From assembly GCA_041690595.1 (NCBI GenBank), contig JAWLHB010000033.1:1-64000 (forward strand): 64,000 nucleotides of DNA. The letters are read 5' to 3'. A program made the translations under genes and the position numbers. Each line of letters begins with the position of its first letter. The stretch's first letter is position 1. The notes below the pieces were generated by a model. That model did no database searches. It was not told the DNA's origin and saw only the letters and a list, made by a program, of their open reading frames with translations. Of this stretch, positions 32,080 to 45,794 are shown one piece after another. This stretch comes from Lentisphaeria bacterium. Its GTDB lineage: Bacteria; Verrucomicrobiota; Lentisphaeria; JABSQK01; JAWLHB01.

Positions 32080-33009
32080 TCAGAGCCGCTCCATACGGCC
32101 GGTCCGAGTATTCACTACCGGCATCCCGGCGATGGCACGCCGGCGATCATCCCCGCTGAGGAAGGAAAGCTTGCCCTCCCGATCACGCGACTCGCGCGAT
32201 TTCGAGCTGACAAAACCCTCCGCGACGCTCCGCGGCGTCAGCCCCCCCAACCTGTCCCGGCGCACGAAAAACGCATTGTTTCCCGCGCTGGTGCAACCGA
32301 CAAACGCATACCCCTTCTCCTCCGCCAGATCGCACAACGCCATCAGAGACGCCCCGAAATACAGATTCGTAAAGTGCTTGTCCGTCCGCCTGAACGCCGC
32401 ATCATACGGCACCGTCCATGGCTGATCCGCTCCGAAAAGACTGTTGTACTCGACGATGACTACAATCGGATCCACCACCTCGATCGCCTTCCACACCCAG
32501 TAGTCATTGCCGTCGATGTCGATGTGCAGCAGACCGATCTCCCCGGCAAAATGGTTCTGGCTGATAAGCTCATTGATGTTCTCCGCCGTGACAAATGCCG
32601 GCACCGCCGTCAGCTCGTACCGCCAGTACAGCTCCTCCCCCTTGATGGCGGCAATGTTCAGCGGATTGCCATCCATGATCAGCCCACTCCAGTTCCTCGA
32701 CATCAGCAGATAACGCGTATTCGCCTCACTGTAATTCTCCACGCCGAACTCGATGAAGCTCTCCGTCGTGATCTCCAGGTAATCTACCAGAAAGCTGATG
32801 ATGCCATCATCCCCCCATTGCGAGAAGACACTGAACTCTGCCGCCTGAAGGTTATGGCGAATCTGCTCCGCCTGCGCCATATTCATCCCGTGGAGAATGC
32901 CGGCCGAGATGATGGCCGACCGTTCCATGCTCCGCACCAGCGGACGGACCCGAACTCTGGGAAGCAACATTCGCCTCAGCGAACCGACCGGTTTTTGTAG
33001 GAGCTGCAT
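32080..33009 (-). CDS. Conserved hypothetical protein, FkbM-like methyltransferase fold
   Basis: FSQWGDDGII, FIEFGVENYSEANT, LLHIDIDGNDYWVW, VIVEYN, GASL and GNNAFFV motifs. Confidence 0.75.
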   Translation of the reverse strand: MQLLQKPVGSLRRMLLPRVRVRPLVRSMERSAIISAGILHGMNMAQAEQIRHNLQAAEFSVFSQWGDDGIISFLVDYLEITTESFIEFGVENYSEANTRYLLMSRNWSGLIMDGNPLNIAAIKGEELYWRYELTAVPAFVTAENINELISQNHFAGEIGLLHIDIDGNDYWVWKAIEVVDPIVVIVEYNSLFGADQPWTVPYDAAFRRTDKHFTNLYFGASLMALCDLAEEKGYAFVGCTSAGNNAFFVRRDRLGGLTPRSVAEGFVSSKSRESRDREGKLSFLSGDDRRRAIAGMPVVNTRTGRMERL

Positions 33010-33104
33010 AATATCCATAGACCACATATCTTGAGGTTCTATACACATCCAAGCCCCCATTCCACAATACCCCCAACACAAATCCATCTGCAAATGCTTT
33101 ACGA

Positions 33105-37041: not shown

Positions 37042-37896
37042 ATGAGCGACGCGAGTTCTCAGCAAGAAATGGTGATCAAGCCCAAACACGGGCTCATCGC
37101 CGTCGATTTTCGTGAGCTATGGCAATATCGCGAGCTCTTCTTCTTTCTCGCGTGGCGCGATATAGCCGTACGTTACAAGCAGACCCTCATCGGCATCTTC
37201 TGGGCTGCCTTGCAGCCCCTGATGACGATGGTCATCTTCACGGTCATCTTCAACAAGCTGGCCGGGCTCAAGGCCGCGGGCGATACCCCCTATGCGGTCA
37301 TGACCTTCGCCGCCCTGCTGCCATGGCAGTTCTTCGCCAATGCCATGAGTCAAAGCAGCAACTCGCTGGTCAATTCCGCCAACATGCTCCGCAAGGTCTA
37401 CTTTCCGCGGCTGATCATGCCCAGCAGCGCGGTGATCAGCGGCGCCGTCGACTTCCTCATCGCCGCGCTGATCCTGATGGCGATGATGCTCTACTACGGC
37501 GTGGGCGTCCAACTCCACATCCTGCTCCTGCCGCTCTTCTTTCTGATGGCGGTCGGCTGCGCCTTCGGCATCGGCCTCTGGTTCAGCGCCCTCAATGTGA
37601 AGTATCGCGATGTGAAGCACGTCATCCCCTTCATTCAGCGCATGGGCATGTACGTCTGCCCCATCGGCTTCATGAGCTCCGTGGTGCGGGACAACCTCTC
37701 GACACCCGTCTACTTCCTTTATAACCTCAATCCCATGGTCGGGGTGATCGACGGCTTTCGCTGGGCAATCCTGGGGCCCGCCTACGAGCCATACTGGCCC
37801 GGATTCTGGGCCAGCGCCGCCATCGTCGTCCTGCTGATCGTCTCCGGCGCCTACTTCTTCCGTTCGGTCGAGCGCACCTTCGCCGATATCGTCTGA
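37042..37896 (+). CDS. wzm: Polysaccharide ABC exporter permease
   Basis: ELWQYRELFFFLAWRDIAVRYKQT, KVYFPR, LNVKYRDV, LNPM and ERTFADIV motifs. Confidence 0.93.
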   Translation: MSDASSQQEMVIKPKHGLIAVDFRELWQYRELFFFLAWRDIAVRYKQTLIGIFWAALQPLMTMVIFTVIFNKLAGLKAAGDTPYAVMTFAALLPWQFFANAMSQSSNSLVNSANMLRKVYFPRLIMPSSAVISGAVDFLIAALILMAMMLYYGVGVQLHILLLPLFFLMAVGCAFGIGLWFSALNVKYRDVKHVIPFIQRMGMYVCPIGFMSSVVRDNLSTPVYFLYNLNPMVGVIDGFRWAILGPAYEPYWPGFWASAAIVVLLIVSGAYFFRSVERTFADIV

Positions 37897-37927: not shown

Positions 37928-38797
37928 ATGAATGCGCAAGCGCTGGCTGTCGAACATGCGGTGGAGGTTCATCCTTTCGACTCCGACAAACTCTCCTACT
38001 ACCGCACCAGCCACCATTTCGAAGCCTACGCCGAGATCGAATCGGTCGCCGACTACGAGCAATGCGTGCAGTGGGCGGCCTCCCATGGGCGCGACCTCTA
38101 CCTCTTGGGGAATGGCTCGAACACCCTCTTCGTCCGTGAACAGGTGCACAGCCTCATCGTCAAGAACGCCCTGCCGCGCGACATCGAACCCCTGCCCGAC
38201 CACCGCCTGCGTGTCTCCTCCTCCGTCCCCCTCAACCGCGTGCTCCAGCACTGCTGGAAAGAGCGCCTCAACTCCTTCTACTACCTCTCTTCCGTGCCCG
38301 GCAACGTCGGCGGTGCTCTCGCCATGAACGCCGGCCGTGGGCGAGACCACAACATGACCATCTACGACTTCGTCGAATCCGTCACCTGGTGGCAGGACGG
38401 CGAACTGGTCACCCGAGAGGCCGGCGAAATAGAACGCGGCTACCGCCATACCCCCTTCACGGGCATGGACCCGCGGCTGATCGTCAGTGCCGTGCTCAAA
38501 TTTACGCCAGGCAACTTCACCGGCTCCCCCATCAAGGAACGAGCCCAATGGACCCATATTCACCAGGACAATACCAAGCCCAACTGCGGCTCGGTCTTCA
38601 AGGAAGCCGACTTTTCCATCCTGAAACGCCTGCGCGGCCTGCATATCGGCGGCGCACGCTACTCCAGCGAAACGATCAACTGGATCAACAACGAGGCCGG
38701 CGGCAGCAGGTCCATCGTCATGCTGATTCGCCTGGCCCAAAGCCTCCATGTCGTCATGGGCAAGAAGGCCGTCCCTGAAGTGATCATGGTACGATGA
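37928..38797 (+). CDS. MurB-like FAD-dependent reductase (paralog inside a glycan locus)
   Basis: LLGNGSN, VPGNVGGALAMNAG, GYRHT, NCGSVFK and C-terminal PEV motifs. Confidence 0.8.
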   Translation: MNAQALAVEHAVEVHPFDSDKLSYYRTSHHFEAYAEIESVADYEQCVQWAASHGRDLYLLGNGSNTLFVREQVHSLIVKNALPRDIEPLPDHRLRVSSSVPLNRVLQHCWKERLNSFYYLSSVPGNVGGALAMNAGRGRDHNMTIYDFVESVTWWQDGELVTREAGEIERGYRHTPFTGMDPRLIVSAVLKFTPGNFTGSPIKERAQWTHIHQDNTKPNCGSVFKEADFSILKRLRGLHIGGARYSSETINWINNEAGGSRSIVMLIRLAQSLHVVMGKKAVPEVIMVR

Positions 38798-38822
38798 AAC
38801 GTCTGACCACGGAACTATCCGC

Positions 38823-40043
38823 ATGAACCTCGCCATTCTTACCTTGCATTACGGATACAACGAAGGCGCCATGCTGCAGGCCTGGTGCCTGGCACGGAGC
38901 CTGAGCAACGCCATGCCCGAACATGCCCTGCAAGCCGAGCTTTTCGACCATCGCTATCCGCACAAACAGAGAATGTACGGCAAGCCTACTACCGCTCGCA
39001 AGCAGGCCATGACCTTCTTCCTCGAACGACAGCTGCCGCTCAGCACCGAACACATCTGCGATGATAGCCACATCGAGTCCTTTCGACGGCTCGACGCCAG
39101 GTACCAGGGCATTGTCGTCGGCAGCGATGAAGTCTGGAGAGTCGATTACTCCCGCGCCTGGCTCGGCTTGATGGTCCGCCAGGAAGGCAAATGGACACCC
39201 GCCTTCCCCAATCTCTATTGGCCCGACAGCACCATTTCCGCACCCAAGGCCTCCTATGCCGCTGCCAATGGCGACCTCTGCGACTACACGACCATCCCCA
39301 AGCACGACCGCCGGCGCATGCACCGCATCCTCAGCGACTTCGTCTATCTCGGCGTACGCGACCACAAGACCCTTGCCTACCTCGAATGGCTCGGCAAAGA
39401 CCTCGCCGAACGCGCCGAAATCACCCCCGACCCCACCTTCTCTCACGACGTCATCGGCGATGTCGATCGGCAACAGTTGCGCCGGCGTCTCGAACGCGCC
39501 GGCATGGACTATTCCCGGCCTCGTCTCGGCCTGGTGATGTGGGAGGATGTGCCCGAGGTCGACGAGGCTATCGCCCAGTTGCAGGCACAGGAATACCAGG
39601 TCGTCGTCCTCAACGGCCATCATCCGCGCGCCGACATCTCCCTGAGCGACCTCGACCTGAGCCCCCCCGAGTGGGCAGCCACCTTCGGCGAGTTCAATCT
39701 CTGCTTCTCCCAGCGCATGCACGGCTGCATCTTCTCCCTCCTCAACAACACCCCCCTCGTCGGCATCGAAGTGCACCAGAATCCCCTCGGACATCCCACC
39801 AAGATGCGCGACCTGCTCCAGCAGATGCAACTCCTCGACTTCTACCATGATTGCTCCGCGACCAATCCAATCACCCTCGCCGAACGCAGCGAACGCGCCC
39901 GCACCGCCTGGCCGGAAGACGCCGTCAGAGACCGCTGCACGCTCATGCGACAGCGCTCCACCGACGCCATTCGCCGCATCGTCGACCTCACGGCCGCCGC
40001 GGCTCCCCCGGAACTCCTCCTCGATCATCGGCAGTTGACGTGA
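38823..40043 (+). CDS. Polysaccharide pyruvyl transferase family protein
   Basis: YNEGAMLQAWCL, VVGSDEVW, ASYAA, LGVRD, PDPTF and RMHGCIFS motifs. Confidence 0.88.
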   Translation: MNLAILTLHYGYNEGAMLQAWCLARSLSNAMPEHALQAELFDHRYPHKQRMYGKPTTARKQAMTFFLERQLPLSTEHICDDSHIESFRRLDARYQGIVVGSDEVWRVDYSRAWLGLMVRQEGKWTPAFPNLYWPDSTISAPKASYAAANGDLCDYTTIPKHDRRRMHRILSDFVYLGVRDHKTLAYLEWLGKDLAERAEITPDPTFSHDVIGDVDRQQLRRRLERAGMDYSRPRLGLVMWEDVPEVDEAIAQLQAQEYQVVVLNGHHPRADISLSDLDLSPPEWAATFGEFNLCFSQRMHGCIFSLLNNTPLVGIEVHQNPLGHPTKMRDLLQQMQLLDFYHDCSATNPITLAERSERARTAWPEDAVRDRCTLMRQRSTDAIRRIVDLTAAAAPPELLLDHRQLT

Positions 40044-42235
40044 AACCTCCAGCCACACAACCTCAGCCTATGCCCTCTACGGCCACTCACGAATCGTCCC
40101 CCTTGGTGACTGTCGTTATCCCCACCCACAATCGGGAAGATCTGATTGTGCCCACCATCGACAGCGTTCGCCGGCAGACCCTTCAGCAGTGGGAGTGCAT
40201 TGTCGTGGACGATGGCTCCACGGACCACACCCGCGAGGTGGTGGAGGCCATCTGCCGGGCGGAACCCCGCCTGCGCTACGTCTGGCAGGAGAACTCCTCG
40301 GCAGCCAATGCCCGCAACCACGGGCTGCGCCTGGCCAACGGCAGGTATATCGTCTTCCTCGACTCCGATGACCTCTTCACTCCCGATCGCCTCGAATGGC
40401 AGGCGGCCGCCCTCGAGGCCGATCCCGGGGCTGTCATCGCTTACGGTGATACCTGGAAGTTCTACCACGACAAACCGCATGACGGCTTCCTTTACCTGGA
40501 TGGAACCACCTCCATGCCTCAGGGTGACGCCTTCGAGGCGCTCATCAGCAACTCCAGCATGTATTCGCCTCTCATCCGCACCGCCGCCATCCGCGAGGCC
40601 GGCGGATTCGATGTCGAGATCGCCTCCGCGGAAGACTGGGACATGTGGCTCACCCTTGCCAGAAAAGGGCGCGTCATCTACGAACCCCGCGTGGCCCTGC
40701 ACTACCGGATCCACAGCGGCAACAAGTCCGCCAACACCCTGCGCAACTACCGCTGCGCCAGCTACGTCGTCAAGAAGCACCTGAAGGACTTGCCCGACAA
40801 GCAGCGGCGGCGCCTCCGCCGACAGGCCCGCGACTACTTCCAGAAAGGCTATACCTATCGCCTCTTCGACCTCAGCCGCGACAGCATCCGCCAGGGACGG
40901 CTCCTCATCGCCGCGCGGGCAGCCGGCACCGCCATCTTCCTCAATCCTGGCACCTGCATGCGCACCCTGGCACTGCAATGGCCGCGCCGCCTCGTCGCCA
41001 AAATCCTCTCCTGGCCGCTCACCCTCATCAATCGCCTGGTCTCTTCCCCCCGCGGCATCCTGCGTCTTACCCACCGTCCCCCCGCCGATACCAGGTCCAG
41101 GCCCTCACCCCTCCCTCCACTCAACGACGTGGCCAGAATCCTCATCATCAGGCAGGACGAAATCGGCGATGTCGTGATGACCTCCGCGCTCCTGCGTGAG
41201 CTGCGGCGGAACGCCCCGGCTGCCGAGATCACCATGGTGGCCAATCCCGTCGCCGCCGCGCTCCTCGAGGCCTGCCCATATATCGATCGCGTCCTGCCAC
41301 TCAAGTGGAACGAGCGCGGCAGAATCGGCCCCATTCGCCGGTGGAGACAGGCACGAGACTTCGCCCGCGAGCACCTGCAGCCACGCGACTTCGACTTGGC
41401 TATTATTCCCCGCTACGACTGTGACGACTACTTTTCCACCGCCCTCGCCTGCCTCAGTGGCGCCACCCATCGCCTCGCCTACAGCGAAGCCGTCACGCCG
41501 CGCAAGCAACGGCGCAACCGCGACTACGATCTCCTCCTCACCCATGCCATGGTCACCTCCAGCGCCCATGATGTCGAGCACAATCTCAACCTCCTGCGGC
41601 AACTGGGCGGACAAGTTCACAACGACCGCCTCGAATTGTGGACCACCGAGGCAGACCAGGCCTTCGCCGCCAATCTCCTCTCCGACCTGGGCATAGACAA
41701 CGATAGCCCCCTCGTCGTCATAGCTCCAGGCGCCGGCGCCGCCAAACGCCAGTGGCCCATCGAACAACTGGCCGAAGTCGCCGCCTGGCTCATGCACGAC
41801 CAGAATGCTCAGGTGATCATCATCGGCGGTCCCGACGAACGCCACCTCGGCCGCGAACTGCGCCGCCAGGCCGGCAATGGCATCATCGATCTGGTCGGTC
41901 ACTGCTCCCTCCGCCAGACCGCCGCCCTCCTGCGTCATTGCAACCTCTATGTTGGCAACGATTCGGGCCCCATGCACATGGCGGTGGCCGCGGGGCTTCC
42001 AATCGTCGAAATCTCCTGCCATCCCGAAGCCGCTTCCCTCCAGCATCCCAATTCCCCCAGTCGCTTCGGTCCATGGCAGGTGCCATGCACGATCCTTCGC
42101 CCACCCGCACCGTTGGCGCCCTGCACCGATGGCTGCGAGGCCGACCGGCCCCACTGCATTCGCCAGATCACGCCCGACCAAGTCAAGCAAGCGGCCCAGG
42201 CTTTCCTGCCGGCGCCGGTTACTCTCCACCGATAA
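40040..42235 (+). CDS. GT2-GT9 (heptosyltransferase-like) fusion glycosyltransferase
   Basis: N-terminal VVIPTHN, VVDDGSTD, FLDSDD and EDWD; C-terminal DEIGDVV, APGAGAAKRQWP and VGNDSGPMHMA. GTGA overlap start. Confidence 0.9.
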   Translation: MKPPATQPQPMPSTATHESSPLVTVVIPTHNREDLIVPTIDSVRRQTLQQWECIVVDDGSTDHTREVVEAICRAEPRLRYVWQENSSAANARNHGLRLANGRYIVFLDSDDLFTPDRLEWQAAALEADPGAVIAYGDTWKFYHDKPHDGFLYLDGTTSMPQGDAFEALISNSSMYSPLIRTAAIREAGGFDVEIASAEDWDMWLTLARKGRVIYEPRVALHYRIHSGNKSANTLRNYRCASYVVKKHLKDLPDKQRRRLRRQARDYFQKGYTYRLFDLSRDSIRQGRLLIAARAAGTAIFLNPGTCMRTLALQWPRRLVAKILSWPLTLINRLVSSPRGILRLTHRPPADTRSRPSPLPPLNDVARILIIRQDEIGDVVMTSALLRELRRNAPAAEITMVANPVAAALLEACPYIDRVLPLKWNERGRIGPIRRWRQARDFAREHLQPRDFDLAIIPRYDCDDYFSTALACLSGATHRLAYSEAVTPRKQRRNRDYDLLLTHAMVTSSAHDVEHNLNLLRQLGGQVHNDRLELWTTEADQAFAANLLSDLGIDNDSPLVVIAPGAGAAKRQWPIEQLAEVAAWLMHDQNAQVIIIGGPDERHLGRELRRQAGNGIIDLVGHCSLRQTAALLRHCNLYVGNDSGPMHMAVAAGLPIVEISCHPEAASLQHPNSPSRFGPWQVPCTILRPPAPLAPCTDGCEADRPHCIRQITPDQVKQAAQAFLPAPVTLHR

Positions 42236-42249
42236 GGAAATCCATCACC

Positions 42250-43374
42250 ATGACCACTGCCACCTCAGCTCCTTCCCGTAGCACCATCGAGCGATACCTG
42301 CGCAAAGAAGCCGACATGCACCTCATGATAGCCAGAATCGCCGGTGAGCGCATCGAACAGGCTGCCGGCGCCATGGCCGACTGCATCATGCAGGGCGGAC
42401 GCATCCTCTTTGTCGCCTTTGGGGACAATCGCGCCGACGTGCGCATCATGGCCAATGTCCTCGCCGAGCGCTTTGCCTGCCGCGAACATCCGCTCCCCGC
42501 CATCGCCGTCGACCCCAGCATCTTCGGCTCCGCCAGTCAGGACCGCGACAGCGACGAAGTCATCGCCACCCAACTCACCGCCCTTGCCGAACCGGGAGAC
42601 CTCGTTGTCGCACTGGCCCGCGACGATGCAAACCGCCATCGCCATGTCGTCGCCGCCGCCCATGACGCCAGACTGCCCATCATTGCCATCGTCGGCAGTG
42701 ACGACAAGGCCCTCATCGACAGTGCCACCATCGCCATCGTCGCCCCCACCTCCGATCCCCGGCGGCTCCGCGAATGCCAGGTCACCATCGGCAACCTCCT
42801 CTGTGACCTTATCGAAGAGAAGTGCCCCGCCCGCTCCCGTGACCAGACCTACCTCACGACGCCGCAACTCTCCGCAAGCAACGGCGCGAACAAGGTCTGC
42901 GACTGGGATACGCTCCTCCCCGACCGCGAAGCATGGCGCCACGCCGGCAAATCCGTCGTCTGGACCAATGGCTGCTTCGACCTCATGCACATCGGCCACG
43001 TCAAGAGCCTCCAGGCCGCCCGCGCTTACGGCGATGTTCTCGTGGTTGGCGTCAACAGCGACGACACCATTCGCCAGCTCAAGGGGCCCGAACGCCCCAT
43101 CATTCCCGCCCATGAGCGGGTGCAGGTCCTCGCCGCCCTCGAATGCGTCGATCGCGTCGTGATCTTTCACGAGATGACTCCCGAGGATTCCCTGCGGCGG
43201 CTCCAGCCCGACGTTCACTGCAAGGGCGAGGACTATGCCCCGCCGCACGGCAAACCCATCCCCGAGGCCGAACTCGTCCACTCCTATGGTGGCCAGGTCA
43301 AATTCATCCCACTCTATCCCTCCGTCTCCACCAGCGATCTCATCGAGCGCGTCCTCAAACGCCGGGCGCTCTGA
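42250..43374 (+). CDS. Degenerate GmhA-like SIS domain fused to an HldC/RfaE-II heptose-1-phosphate adenylyltransferase
   Basis: C-terminal TNGCFDLMHIGH, VGVNSD, KGPERP, KGEDY and STSDLI; N-terminal SIS-like domain (PAIA, PGDLVVAL, LLCDLIE). Confidence 0.85.
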   Translation: MTTATSAPSRSTIERYLRKEADMHLMIARIAGERIEQAAGAMADCIMQGGRILFVAFGDNRADVRIMANVLAERFACREHPLPAIAVDPSIFGSASQDRDSDEVIATQLTALAEPGDLVVALARDDANRHRHVVAAAHDARLPIIAIVGSDDKALIDSATIAIVAPTSDPRRLRECQVTIGNLLCDLIEEKCPARSRDQTYLTTPQLSASNGANKVCDWDTLLPDREAWRHAGKSVVWTNGCFDLMHIGHVKSLQAARAYGDVLVVGVNSDDTIRQLKGPERPIIPAHERVQVLAALECVDRVVIFHEMTPEDSLRRLQPDVHCKGEDYAPPHGKPIPEAELVHSYGGQVKFIPLYPSVSTSDLIERVLKRRAL

Positions 43375-43412: not shown

Positions 43413-44762
43413 ATGAAGAAATCCATTGTCATCTCCGTCGACGATCTGGGCAAGCGCTACGAGCTCGGCTCCACCTTCTCCCATCACGATACTCTGCGCG
43501 ACCAGCTCGTCTCCCGGATCCGTGGACTCCTCCCTGGCGCCCGGAACACCAATGGCAAAGCCAACCTCAAGAACAAACTCGAGGACAAGGATGGATTGCG
43601 CCTTGACGATGACGACAACGGCGAATTCTGGGCCGCCCGCAACATCTCCTTCGATGTCGAACAGGGCGAAGTGGTCGGTATCATCGGCCGCAACGGCGCC
43701 GGCAAGAGCACCCTGCTCAAACTGCTCAGCCGCATCACCGAACCCACCACCGGCGAGATCCGCCTCCGCGGCAGAGTCGCCAGCCTCCTCGAAGTCGGCA
43801 CCGGCTTCCACCCCGAACTCACCGGAAGAGAGAACATCTTCCTCAATGGCGCCATCCTCGGCATGAGCAGACAGGAGATCATCCGCAAATTCGACGAGAT
43901 CGTCGACTTCTCCGGCGTCTCCAAGTTCATCGACACCCCCGTCAAGCGCTACTCCAGCGGCATGTACGTTCGTCTCGCCTTTGCCGTCGCCGCCCATCTC
44001 GAACCCGAGATCCTCGTCGTCGACGAAGTCCTCGCCGTCGGCGATGCCGGATTCCAGCAGAAATGTCTCGCCAAGATGGACGACGTCGCCAACCAGGGAC
44101 GCACCGTCCTCTTCGTCAGCCACAACATGGCCGCCATCCGCAACCTCTGCAGCCGCGGCATCTGCCTCGACAAGGGACAGGTCGTCGCCGACACCGACGT
44201 CAACTCCGCCATCGAGACCTTCATGAGCACCATGGCGGGCGATGCCCAGACCAGCCTCCGCAACCGCACCGACCGCAAGGGCAAAGGCGAAGTCCGCTTC
44301 ACCCAGATCCGCTACGAGACCGACAATGGCCGCCCCATCGACTATGGCACCTCCGGCCAGCCCCTCATCATCGCCTTCGACTACGAGTCCAGCCTCAGCC
44401 ACCTCAAGAACGTCCGGCTGAGCCTGACCGTCAACAACCACATGGGCGAACTCTATTTTCCCTGCGTCAGCTCCGTCTCCGAATCCGGCATGCTCAACGC
44501 CCCCCCCAACGGCACCTTCCGCTGCCGCATCGACAATCTCCCTCTCTCCGGTGGCCGCTATCTCCTCAATGTCTTCCTCGAAGTGAACAAAGAGGTGCAG
44601 GACCACGTGCTGGCCGCCGCGGTCCTCCCCGTGCAGGATGGCGACTTCTTCGGCACCGGCAAGATCTACAGCCCCGGCTGGCAGGGCCGTGGCGTACTTG
44701 TCCCTTACCGTTGGCACGTTGGCGAGCCACGTGCGCTTGCCCGAACCAGCAGCTTCGAATGA
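43413..44762 (+). CDS. wzt: Polysaccharide ABC exporter ATPase with a Wzt C-terminal domain
   Basis: GRNGAGKST, YSSGMYVRLAF, VDEVLAVGD and FVSHN motifs; C-terminal beta-sandwich. Confidence 0.94.
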   Translation: MKKSIVISVDDLGKRYELGSTFSHHDTLRDQLVSRIRGLLPGARNTNGKANLKNKLEDKDGLRLDDDDNGEFWAARNISFDVEQGEVVGIIGRNGAGKSTLLKLLSRITEPTTGEIRLRGRVASLLEVGTGFHPELTGRENIFLNGAILGMSRQEIIRKFDEIVDFSGVSKFIDTPVKRYSSGMYVRLAFAVAAHLEPEILVVDEVLAVGDAGFQQKCLAKMDDVANQGRTVLFVSHNMAAIRNLCSRGICLDKGQVVADTDVNSAIETFMSTMAGDAQTSLRNRTDRKGKGEVRFTQIRYETDNGRPIDYGTSGQPLIIAFDYESSLSHLKNVRLSLTVNNHMGELYFPCVSSVSESGMLNAPPNGTFRCRIDNLPLSGGRYLLNVFLEVNKEVQDHVLAAAVLPVQDGDFFGTGKIYSPGWQGRGVLVPYRWHVGEPRALARTSSFE

Positions 44763-44777
44763 ACCCGAGGATCCATC

Positions 44778-45794
44778 ATGAATGATATCATATATACCCC
44801 CGAGATTCTCCGCCAGCTACCCGCACCGCCCGCCGACGCTACCGGATGGCCATGGACATGCAAGCAACAGCTCAGTCAAGAGCATGACGACCATGAACCT
44901 GAAAAGTGGCCCCGCCTGACCGTCGTCACCCCCAGCTACAACCAGGGCCAGTTCCTCGAACAGACCATCCGCTCCGTCCTTCTCCAGGAGTATCCCAATC
45001 TCCACTACGTCATCATCGACGGCGGCAGCGACGATGATTCCGTCGAGGTCATCAGAAAATACGAACCCTGGATCGACTACTGGGTCTCCGAACGCGATCG
45101 CGGGCAATCCCATGCCATCAACAAAGGCTTCGACCTGGCCGAGGGCGAGATCCTCTGCTGGCTCAACAGCGATGACCTTTTCCTGCCCGGCACACTCCGA
45201 CGCGTCGCACGATGCTTCATGCGCAGCGGCTGCGACATCCTCAGCGGCCATACCCTCGAAGTCGGCCACCATGCCCAGACGCTCTTTGAGGCTCAGCCAT
45301 GCACCGTCGACAGACTGCTCGACAAAATGCGCATCTGTTCCGCCCAGCAGTCCACCTTCTGGACCCGCCAGGTCTGGGAAGAATGCGGCCCCCTCACCGA
45401 AGATCTCCATTACGCCATGGACTTCGACCTCTGGCTGCGCATGGCCGCCGCCAACTTCGAATGGCGTCTCATCGACGAGACCATCGCCATCTTCCGCCGC
45501 CACGAACAGCAGAAAACCGTCACCTCCTATCAGAGCCGCATCGAAGCCCACGAGATCGTCCTCCGCTTCGCCAGATCCCGCTTCTACCAGCCCGAACGCC
45601 ACCACGATTCCGTCCATCGCGCCCTCTGGGTCGAAGGATGGCTCGAATACGCGCACGCCCAGCACTATACCGCCAGCAAGAAGCTTCCCTACTGGCTCCA
45701 TTGGGCTACGCTTCCCTTCCGCAATTGGCGATGCCTCTGGGCTCCCCGCTACTACCCGCGCGTCGTTCGCCGCCTCGCCGGGGACCTGCGATAG
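44778..45794 (+). CDS. Family 2 glycosyltransferase
   Basis: GWPW, VVTPSYNQGQF, IDGGSDD, GQSHAINKG, WLNSDD and MDFDLWLR motifs. Confidence 0.92.
   Translation: MNDIIYTPEILRQLPAPPADATGWPWTCKQQLSQEHDDHEPEKWPRLTVVTPSYNQGQFLEQTIRSVLLQEYPNLHYVIIDGGSDDDSVEVIRKYEPWIDYWVSERDRGQSHAINKGFDLAEGEILCWLNSDDLFLPGTLRRVARCFMRSGCDILSGHTLEVGHHAQTLFEAQPCTVDRLLDKMRICSAQQSTFWTRQVWEECGPLTEDLHYAMDFDLWLRMAAANFEWRLIDETIAIFRRHEQQKTVTSYQSRIEAHEIVLRFARSRFYQPERHHDSVHRALWVEGWLEYAHAQHYTASKKLPYWLHWATLPFRNWRCLWAPRYYPRVVRRLAGDLR

Follow-up and report, generated by a model that had tools for sequence, protein, structure and literature searches.

The 64,000-nt stretch of DNA analyzed here (the window), from contig JAWLHB010000033.1 of a Lentisphaeria bacterium whose genome is 8.1 Mb and 97% complete, encodes on its + strand a MurB-like protein of 289 aa (37928-38797) and, after a gap of 25 bp, a PF04230 protein of 406 aa (38823-40043). 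A preliminary description of this DNA had noted a MurB paralog between wzm and a pyruvyltransferase gene, and the two open reading frames (ORFs) were indeed found at these positions, with wzm directly upstream. They belong to a seven-gene + strand operon, in which wzt is not adjacent to the pair and begins at 43413, past two fusion genes. This wzm was the sole copy detected in the genome by genome-wide phmmer. The GC content of the pair is 0.61-0.62 vs. 0.615 for the genome. Family scans covered selected ORFs between 25 and 52 kb of the window, and the start codons of the operon were inferred from the sequence. The genes of the operon are:

37042-37896, + strand: wzm, ABC-2 polysaccharide exporter permease (PF01061, E 1.8e-14; start codon inferred)
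37928-38797, + strand: MurB-like FAD reductase of a distinct paralog family, predicted enolpyruvyl-ether reductase (R173, S222 and E284 kept; T249 in place of the KHANF His)
38823-40043, + strand: PF04230 pyruvyltransferase of the lactyl-ether-locus subfamily, predicted enolpyruvyl transferase (69.3 bits; cut-off 25.3)
40040-42235, + strand: GT2-GT9 fusion glycosyltransferase (PF00535 and PF01075; the inferred GTG start overlaps the transferase stop)
42250-43374, + strand: fusion of SIS (GmhA-like) and cytidylyltransferase (RfaE domain II-like) domains (PF13580, PF01467; TIGR02199 172.5 bits, cut-off 181.5)
43413-44762, + strand: wzt, ABC ATPase with a Wzt_C domain (PF00005; PF14524 E 1.6e-10, 41.6 bits, cut-off 30.4)
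44778-45794, + strand: GT2 glycosyltransferase, last gene of the operon (PF00535, E 3.3e-25); rtcB is next, on the opposite strand

The MurB-like protein matched FAD_binding_4 (PF01565) with an E-value of 6.7e-11, and a sequence search of the PDB with this protein returned MurB structures only (12 distinct sequences). With 17.3 bits for MurB_C (cut-off 27) and 87.7 bits for TIGR00179 (cut-off 144.5), it reached neither curated threshold, with the caveat that the genome's own housekeeping murB is also narrowly short of TIGR00179 (137.7 bits) but passes MurB_C (81.3 bits). An AlphaFold2 (AF2) model built from a 29-row alignment had a predicted local distance difference test (pLDDT) score of 91, and the top matches of this model in Foldseek were all MurB, with a template modeling (TM) score of 0.84 to 3TX1 and 4PYT. 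Alignment to Staphylococcus aureus MurB (1HSK) placed R173 at R188 (GYR) and S222 at S238 (GSVFK), with ETINW opposite KHAGF, and E284 (PEV) aligned with the EPEV Glu of Escherichia coli MurB. We take the C-terminal catalytic Glu to be residue 325 in E. coli numbering. It had been described previously that the FAD motifs and the catalytic Arg, Ser and Glu are kept while KHANF is replaced by ETINW, and this is what the alignments to the S. aureus and E. coli enzymes showed.

Conservation was examined in 120 close homologs of the MurB-like protein and in 143 distant MurB-family control sequences. R173 and E284 were invariant in 120/120 close homologs and across the 143 controls, and position 222 was Ser in 106 and Thr in 14 of the close homologs and Ser or Cys in the controls. 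In type IIa MurB the proton is supplied by Ser, and contacts of the Arg and Glu residues are also described (PMC3689657). The paralog shares with the type IIa enzymes (S. aureus 1HSK, Listeria 3TX1; EC 1.3.1.98) the three-domain FAD fold, the GxGSN and PG..GG..MNAG motifs and the catalytic Arg, Ser and Glu. It differs from them in that KHANF becomes KTxNW, NAGA becomes NAGRG and RRxxQP becomes RxxW...QD, in that its partner is a PF04230 protein rather than MurA, and in its scores below the family cut-offs, separate clade and patchy distribution. KTxNW is the motif of the paralog family, in which E248 of the window protein is a variant seen in 1/120 sequences. Judged from its sequence and model, the window protein keeps a MurB-type fold and catalytic residues, yet is not classed as a peptidoglycan MurB.

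The pathway suggested in the preliminary description presupposed a separate housekeeping murB, and one other MurB was found in the genome, on contig C10 (69231-70322; MurB_C 81.3 bits; motif RHANII). It shares 26% identity with the window paralog over 148 residues. An IQ-TREE analysis of 28 selected rows split them, with 100/100 support, into 15 paralog and 13 canonical rows, the latter containing the murB of the source genome itself, and in a larger set FastTree gave support of 0.93 to a 55-tip paralog group with no control inside. The idea that the paralog is the only murB of the genome was rejected on the basis of the canonical gene on C10, and a recent duplication of the host murB was rejected because of the 26% identity and the placement of the two proteins on opposite sides of the 100/100 split. 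A second MurB-family gene was present in 5/5 paralog carriers checked. The source genome has a single MurA over the cut-off, on contig C15, and no additional MurA that could supply the paralog was detected, with one MurA over the cut-off in each of 3/3 genomes. We also observed that the C10 murB lies outside any dcw cluster, between lipoate-ligase-like and PQQ-repeat-like genes (labels assigned by eye), and forms a long branch in the tree.

Among 2,039 candidates, 1,201 were homologs of the paralog at E <= 0.001, and the best 120 of these had 46-54% identity; those with names are cyanobacterial. Loci were drawn from GTDB (13 close and 67 distant of 80), metagenomes (4 close and 76 distant of 80) and the genus Nostoc (30 loci from 35 positive genomes, of 127), leaving 43 close loci once 4 duplicates were removed. 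A PF04230-type gene was found within 600 bp of the paralog in 42/43 close loci and in 0/143 distant MurB-family control loci. In the sole miss, the contig stops 2 bp past the paralog gene, and the 42 include one fragment located at a contig end. Pfam PF04230 was confirmed in 12/12 full-length GTDB neighbours, and both orders of the transferase and paralog genes were seen. The pairing of the paralog with PF04230 is far above chance, and the genomic co-occurrence that the preliminary description expected for this clade and pyruvyltransferases is thus borne out by the 42/43 close and 0/143 control loci. In addition, a library-wide profile search identified one protein (P0238) in which PF04230 is fused to the paralog.

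The pair recurs in Planctomycetota and Peregrinibacteriota, in Cetobacterium, where it lies within a Wzy locus, and in the haloarchaeon Natrinema pellirubrum, where it lies in a plasmid cluster (L086:6764-13386) beside aglF, aglM and a flippase gene. Haloarchaea are not known to have peptidoglycan. The Natrinema cluster predicts a lactylated archaeal glycan. The paralog is patchily present, being carried by 35/127 Nostoc-genus genomes, and a family-level match was found in 0/40 relatives of the source genome (best E 1e-24), which fits horizontal acquisition. Other members of the family or of the pair were seen in different settings. A Candidatus Peribacteraceae genome of the candidate phyla radiation (CPR) has the pair (L017:6940-8840) beside an acyltransferase fragment, with no exporter nearby. 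A protein of 674 aa (P0228) combines a ferredoxin-FrhB-like domain with the paralog, giving two candidate enol-ether reductases in one chain. Three proteins (P0150, P0149 and P0152) form a sub-branch with NAGSGP and CGSLC motifs that may have another role.

Lactyl groups occur in E. coli serogroups O69 and O146, and 4,6-pyruvate ketals in O149 and O156 (PMC7685785). In the RefSeq annotation, the O69 cluster contains a transferase and an FrhB-like protein and the O146 cluster a transferase and a nitroreductase, whereas the transferases of the O149 and O156 clusters have no oxidoreductase partner gene. The laboratory strain ATCC 8739 also has the O146 cluster. Among the four O-antigen loci compared, a flavin oxidoreductase gene is thus limited to the two lactyl loci. 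A further E. coli cluster, with no serogroup stated, has an FrhB-like gene and a transferase. A profile built from 13 paralog-adjacent transferases gave 211 bits for O146, 193 bits for the further FrhB-like-containing cluster and 179 bits for O69, and 0 bits for O149, 1.9 for O156, 5.4 for WcaK and 3.3 for the other PF04230 gene of the source genome. A profile made from O69 and O146 only gave 106-175 bits for 12 paralog-adjacent transferases and 25.8 bits (E 6e-9) for the window transferase, which reached at most 6.1 bits with a ketal profile. The transferases of the lactyl-type set have in common an N-terminal N.GA.LQ motif and a GSD[QE][VI]W motif.

The ketal pyruvyltransferases CsaB, WcaK, Pvg1p and WbbZ share the Pfam family of the window transferase. 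Ketal PF04230 enzymes use phosphoenolpyruvate (PEP) as the donor and glycans or lipid-linked glycans as acceptors (PMC10629545, PMC10435577). Unlike these enzymes, the window transferase scores 22.9 bits vs. a cut-off of 213 for CsaB and is at noise level against WcaK and the O149 and O156 enzymes, and unlike the window locus, those of O149 and O156 have no reductase gene. By these comparisons of sequence, the window transferase falls in the O69/O146 lactyl subfamily and not with the ketal type. A PDB search with a Nostoc transferase of the lactyl-type subfamily found no sequence relative, and a single-sequence AF2 model of the transferase had a pLDDT of 34 and was not used.

Previous studies reported lactyl-ether sugars outside peptidoglycan in O-antigens, capsules and slimes (PMC7685785, PMC12679510), and glycolactilic acids that depend on a pyruvyltransferase were reported in Shigella and E. 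coli (Senchenkova 2006, by its title; Liu 2020). For example, O164, with a frameshifted pyruvyltransferase gene (wfeP), has Glc in place of glucolactilic acid, and the same study speaks of UDP-GlcLA (Liu 2020; PMC7685785). In Campylobacter, a 234-Da sugar was reported to track pyruvyltransferase genes. The idea of a lactyl pathway is therefore less new than the preliminary description had implied. Judging by the title of Knirel 2017 (cited in PMC7685785), the configuration would be (R) in O69 and (S) in O146, and it may thus be set by the reductase family. Klebsiella cps loci hold two nitroreductase genes and one F420-hydrogenase gene, and four types, K8, K22, K37 and K66, have a transferase but no ketal (Pan 2015; PMC4616057).

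The window pair resembles the glycolactilic-acid modules of E. coli O69, O146 and O124 (wfeP) and Shigella boydii 17 in that it shares the transferase subfamily of O69 and O146, and, as in the O69 and O146 modules, one flavin oxidoreductase stands beside the transferase in a surface-glycan cluster. It differs from O69 and O146 in that their reductase is FrhB-like or a nitroreductase and that of the window has a MurB fold unrelated to both, and in that the exporter here is Wzm/Wzt. Klebsiella K22, K37 and K66 are reportedly lactylated. No FrhB-like or nitroreductase homologs of the O69/O146 type were detected in the source genome or in the paralog loci, which suggests that the paralog fills the reductase slot alone. 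The presence of a MurB-like gene in known enterobacterial lactyl loci was rejected for O69, by profile search, and for O146, by annotation; in an O69 genome and likewise in K-12, the paralog profile matched only the housekeeping murB, and blastn with the Cetobacterium pair gave no match in 5,426 E. coli genomes. The distinction of a MurB type is drawn against O69 and O146, and a gene of this type may already be in use in one of O124, O58, O150 and S. boydii 17. We found no report in open-access text of a MurB-like reductase assigned to a glycolactilic pathway, key subscription papers being outside this coverage, and the accessible literature contained no enzyme proven to make lactyl-ether sugars outside peptidoglycan.

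Altogether, we consider it likely that the pair is a portable two-gene module, in which enolpyruvyl transfer by the PF04230 enzyme and reduction by the MurB-fold protein would place a lactyl ether on the glycan of the operon, and the paralog probably adds a MurB type, the third type of reductase, to lactyl-ether pathways of a kind already known. By analogy with MurA and MurB chemistry, from which both steps are drawn, the transferase would join C2 of PEP to a single sugar hydroxyl with loss of phosphate, giving an enol ether with no ketal closure on a second hydroxyl. NADPH would then reduce FAD, and FADH2 would donate hydride while S222 protonates, resulting in an acid-stable 1-carboxyethyl (lactyl) ether. 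The enol rather than ketal transfer, the NADPH/FAD reduction and the acceptor are putative, as is an (R) configuration like that of muramic and nosturonic acid. For the acceptor, a glycan that is lipid-linked or still growing seems a slightly better guess than a UDP-sugar; modification after glycosyl transfer is favoured because PF04230 acceptors are lipid-linked or terminal glycans and because O164 inserts plain Glc, despite the mention of UDP-GlcLA in the O164 study. The core of the preliminary description, enolpyruvyl transfer followed by reduction, is well supported as a prediction by the separate murB, the PF04230 pairing, the single fusion and the lactyl-type transferase, and the part that lacks support is its addition of a cap read by Wzt. 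The module offers a two-protein test of enol-ether formation by a PF04230 enzyme. Proteins annotated as UDP-N-acetylmuramate dehydrogenase or FAD-binding protein probably have, in many cases, no part in peptidoglycan synthesis, sequence signatures are now available to separate lactyl from ketal loci, and lactyl-ether glycans would become predictable from genomes if the reading of PF04230 members as enolpyruvyl transferases is true.

Proteins annotated from Nostoc commune fall in the paralog family, and the exopolysaccharide of this species was reported to carry nosturonic acid, 3-O-[(R)-1-carboxyethyl]-D-glucuronic acid, for which an influence on rheology and water flux in Nostoc colonies was proposed. 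Nosturonic acid is a lactyl ether, and its configuration, (R), is the one that a MurB-type reduction should give. Two Nostoc-genus genomes (G007 and G125) encode a protein identical to that of N. commune, beside the transferase. Of the two PF04230 genes in G007, the only lactyl-type one is adjacent to the paralog and the other is ketal-like, and this genome has one MurA, with the canonical MurB encoded elsewhere. No assignment of genes for nosturonic acid was found in the open-access literature, and we propose the pair as the leading candidate genes, based on co-occurrence in the species.

A number of observations weigh against our proposal. The KHANF His is present in 143/143 controls and replaced by Thr in 114/120 close homologs (T249 in the window protein), and the Arg at the position of S. 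aureus R225 (209) is present in 140/143 controls and is Ser, Ala, Val or Thr in the paralogs (T209 in the window). R205, four residues before position 209, is invariant in the paralogs only. Because of the loss of this His and Arg and the new invariant R205, the chemistry of the paralogs may differ; H271 and R225 of S. aureus MurB presumably have roles in substrate and flavin binding. The family member P0150 is fused to a PurN-like formyltransferase, so that a role in glycans need not apply to all members. With at most 25% identity, the window transferase forms a long branch, its tree places it in no supported clade and puts the ketal O149 enzyme inside the open part, and the contrast between lactyl and ketal types compares two with three reference enzymes. 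The count of 0/143 was obtained with a custom transferase profile, not the Pfam model, that may miss remote PF04230 members, in control loci of which only 92/143 had at least 1.2 kb on both sides, and the 43 close loci are not independent, since they are mostly from Nostoc. In the two Nostoc-genus genomes, with canonical murB elsewhere, the single murA precedes the paralog by ~9 kb on the same strand (G007:C1:1126026-1127276 and G125:C95:5004-6254), and the N. commune link between paralog and nosturonic acid is at the species level only. Finally, no PF04230 enzyme proven to form an enol ether was found in the accessible literature, and neither an activity nor a glycan structure is on record for the source organism or for the strains in which the pair was demonstrated.

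Some of these points bear on other explanations of the pair. The paralog might be a second MurB with the MurA product as its substrate, serving as a reserve enzyme for peptidoglycan or providing muramic acid for the polysaccharide, next to an ordinary ketal pyruvyltransferase. The kept MurB fold and catalytic triad would agree with this, as would the murA on the same strand in the two Nostoc-genus genomes and the fact that the characterised PF04230 enzymes all form ketals (PMC6801904, PMC10629545, PMC10435577). However, murA and murB of the source genome are on other contigs, the pair is present in a haloarchaeon, the adjacency to PF04230 is 42/43 vs. 0/143, the transferase is unlike the ketal references, and the substrate-pocket His is lost; we regard a second MurB as very improbable. 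It also seems quite unlikely that the pair acts on a pyruvate-derived group while the flavoprotein oxidizes or epimerizes a lactyl group or passes electrons with an FrhB-like partner. Although loss of the KHANF His and of the R225 equivalent across the family could reflect such a role, and the fusion of an FrhB-like domain to the paralog in P0228 would be odd if both domains were simple alternatives, the paralog retains the Arg, Ser and Glu that serve the reductive half-reaction, and FrhB-like or nitroreductase homologs like those of O69 and O146 were not found in the paralog loci or the source genome.

The preliminary description had further suggested that the lactyl group is a chain-terminating cap, recognized by the C-terminal module of Wzt for export. 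This is compatible with enolpyruvyl transfer and reduction by the pair, and CBM-dependent ABC export of the E. coli O9a type has in common with the window a Wzt with a C-terminal carbohydrate-binding module (CBM). A cap is possible in the window locus, where Wzt has its Wzt_C domain and neither a kinase nor a methyltransferase terminator was detected in the seven genes of the operon; in addition, a pyruvate ketal cap added by WbbZ stops O1 polymerization, and pyruvate termination was suggested for other bacteria (PMC10629545). However, this Klebsiella pneumoniae O1 precedent is without coupling of the cap to export (PMC10629545). The pair also differs from the O9a type in lacking the tie of the capping enzyme to the type of exporter: 13 wide genome loci contained a Wzx-type flippase in 8 cases, Wzm/Wzt in 1, another ABC type in 1 and none seen in 3. 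The Natrinema pair is with a flippase, the Cetobacterium pair with Wzy, and O69 and O146 are Wzx/Wzy loci. The module is thus independent of the exporter, and recognition of a lactyl cap by Wzt is unlikely. More tentatively, and at somewhat less than an even chance, PF04230 might hide a MurA-independent subfamily of enolpyruvyl transferases, completed by MurB-like, FrhB-like or nitroreductase enzymes that fix (R) or (S); the MurB-like version would have spread horizontally from cyanobacteria to haloarchaea and would make the nosturonic acid of N. commune, with a cap possible in the window locus.

Regarding the other genes of the operon, the fusion of SIS and cytidylyltransferase domains is likely a supply of heptose-type nucleotide sugar, and its position beside the GT2-GT9 fusion suggests a heptose-like sugar in the glycan exported by Wzm/Wzt. 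The SIS/GmhA-like domain of this protein (42250-43374), which lies beside the GT2-GT9 fusion, looks degenerate, and separate, more canonical homologs are on contigs C9 and C51. On the opposite strand, 4 kb upstream, is a weakly matching FkbM-like methyltransferase (32080-33093; PF05050, E 0.007) that might act on a surface glycan. The segment 48000-52000, which follows an rtcB/archease-like pair (labels assigned by eye) on its downstream side, has a low GC content (0.49) and contains several short ORFs with no assigned function.

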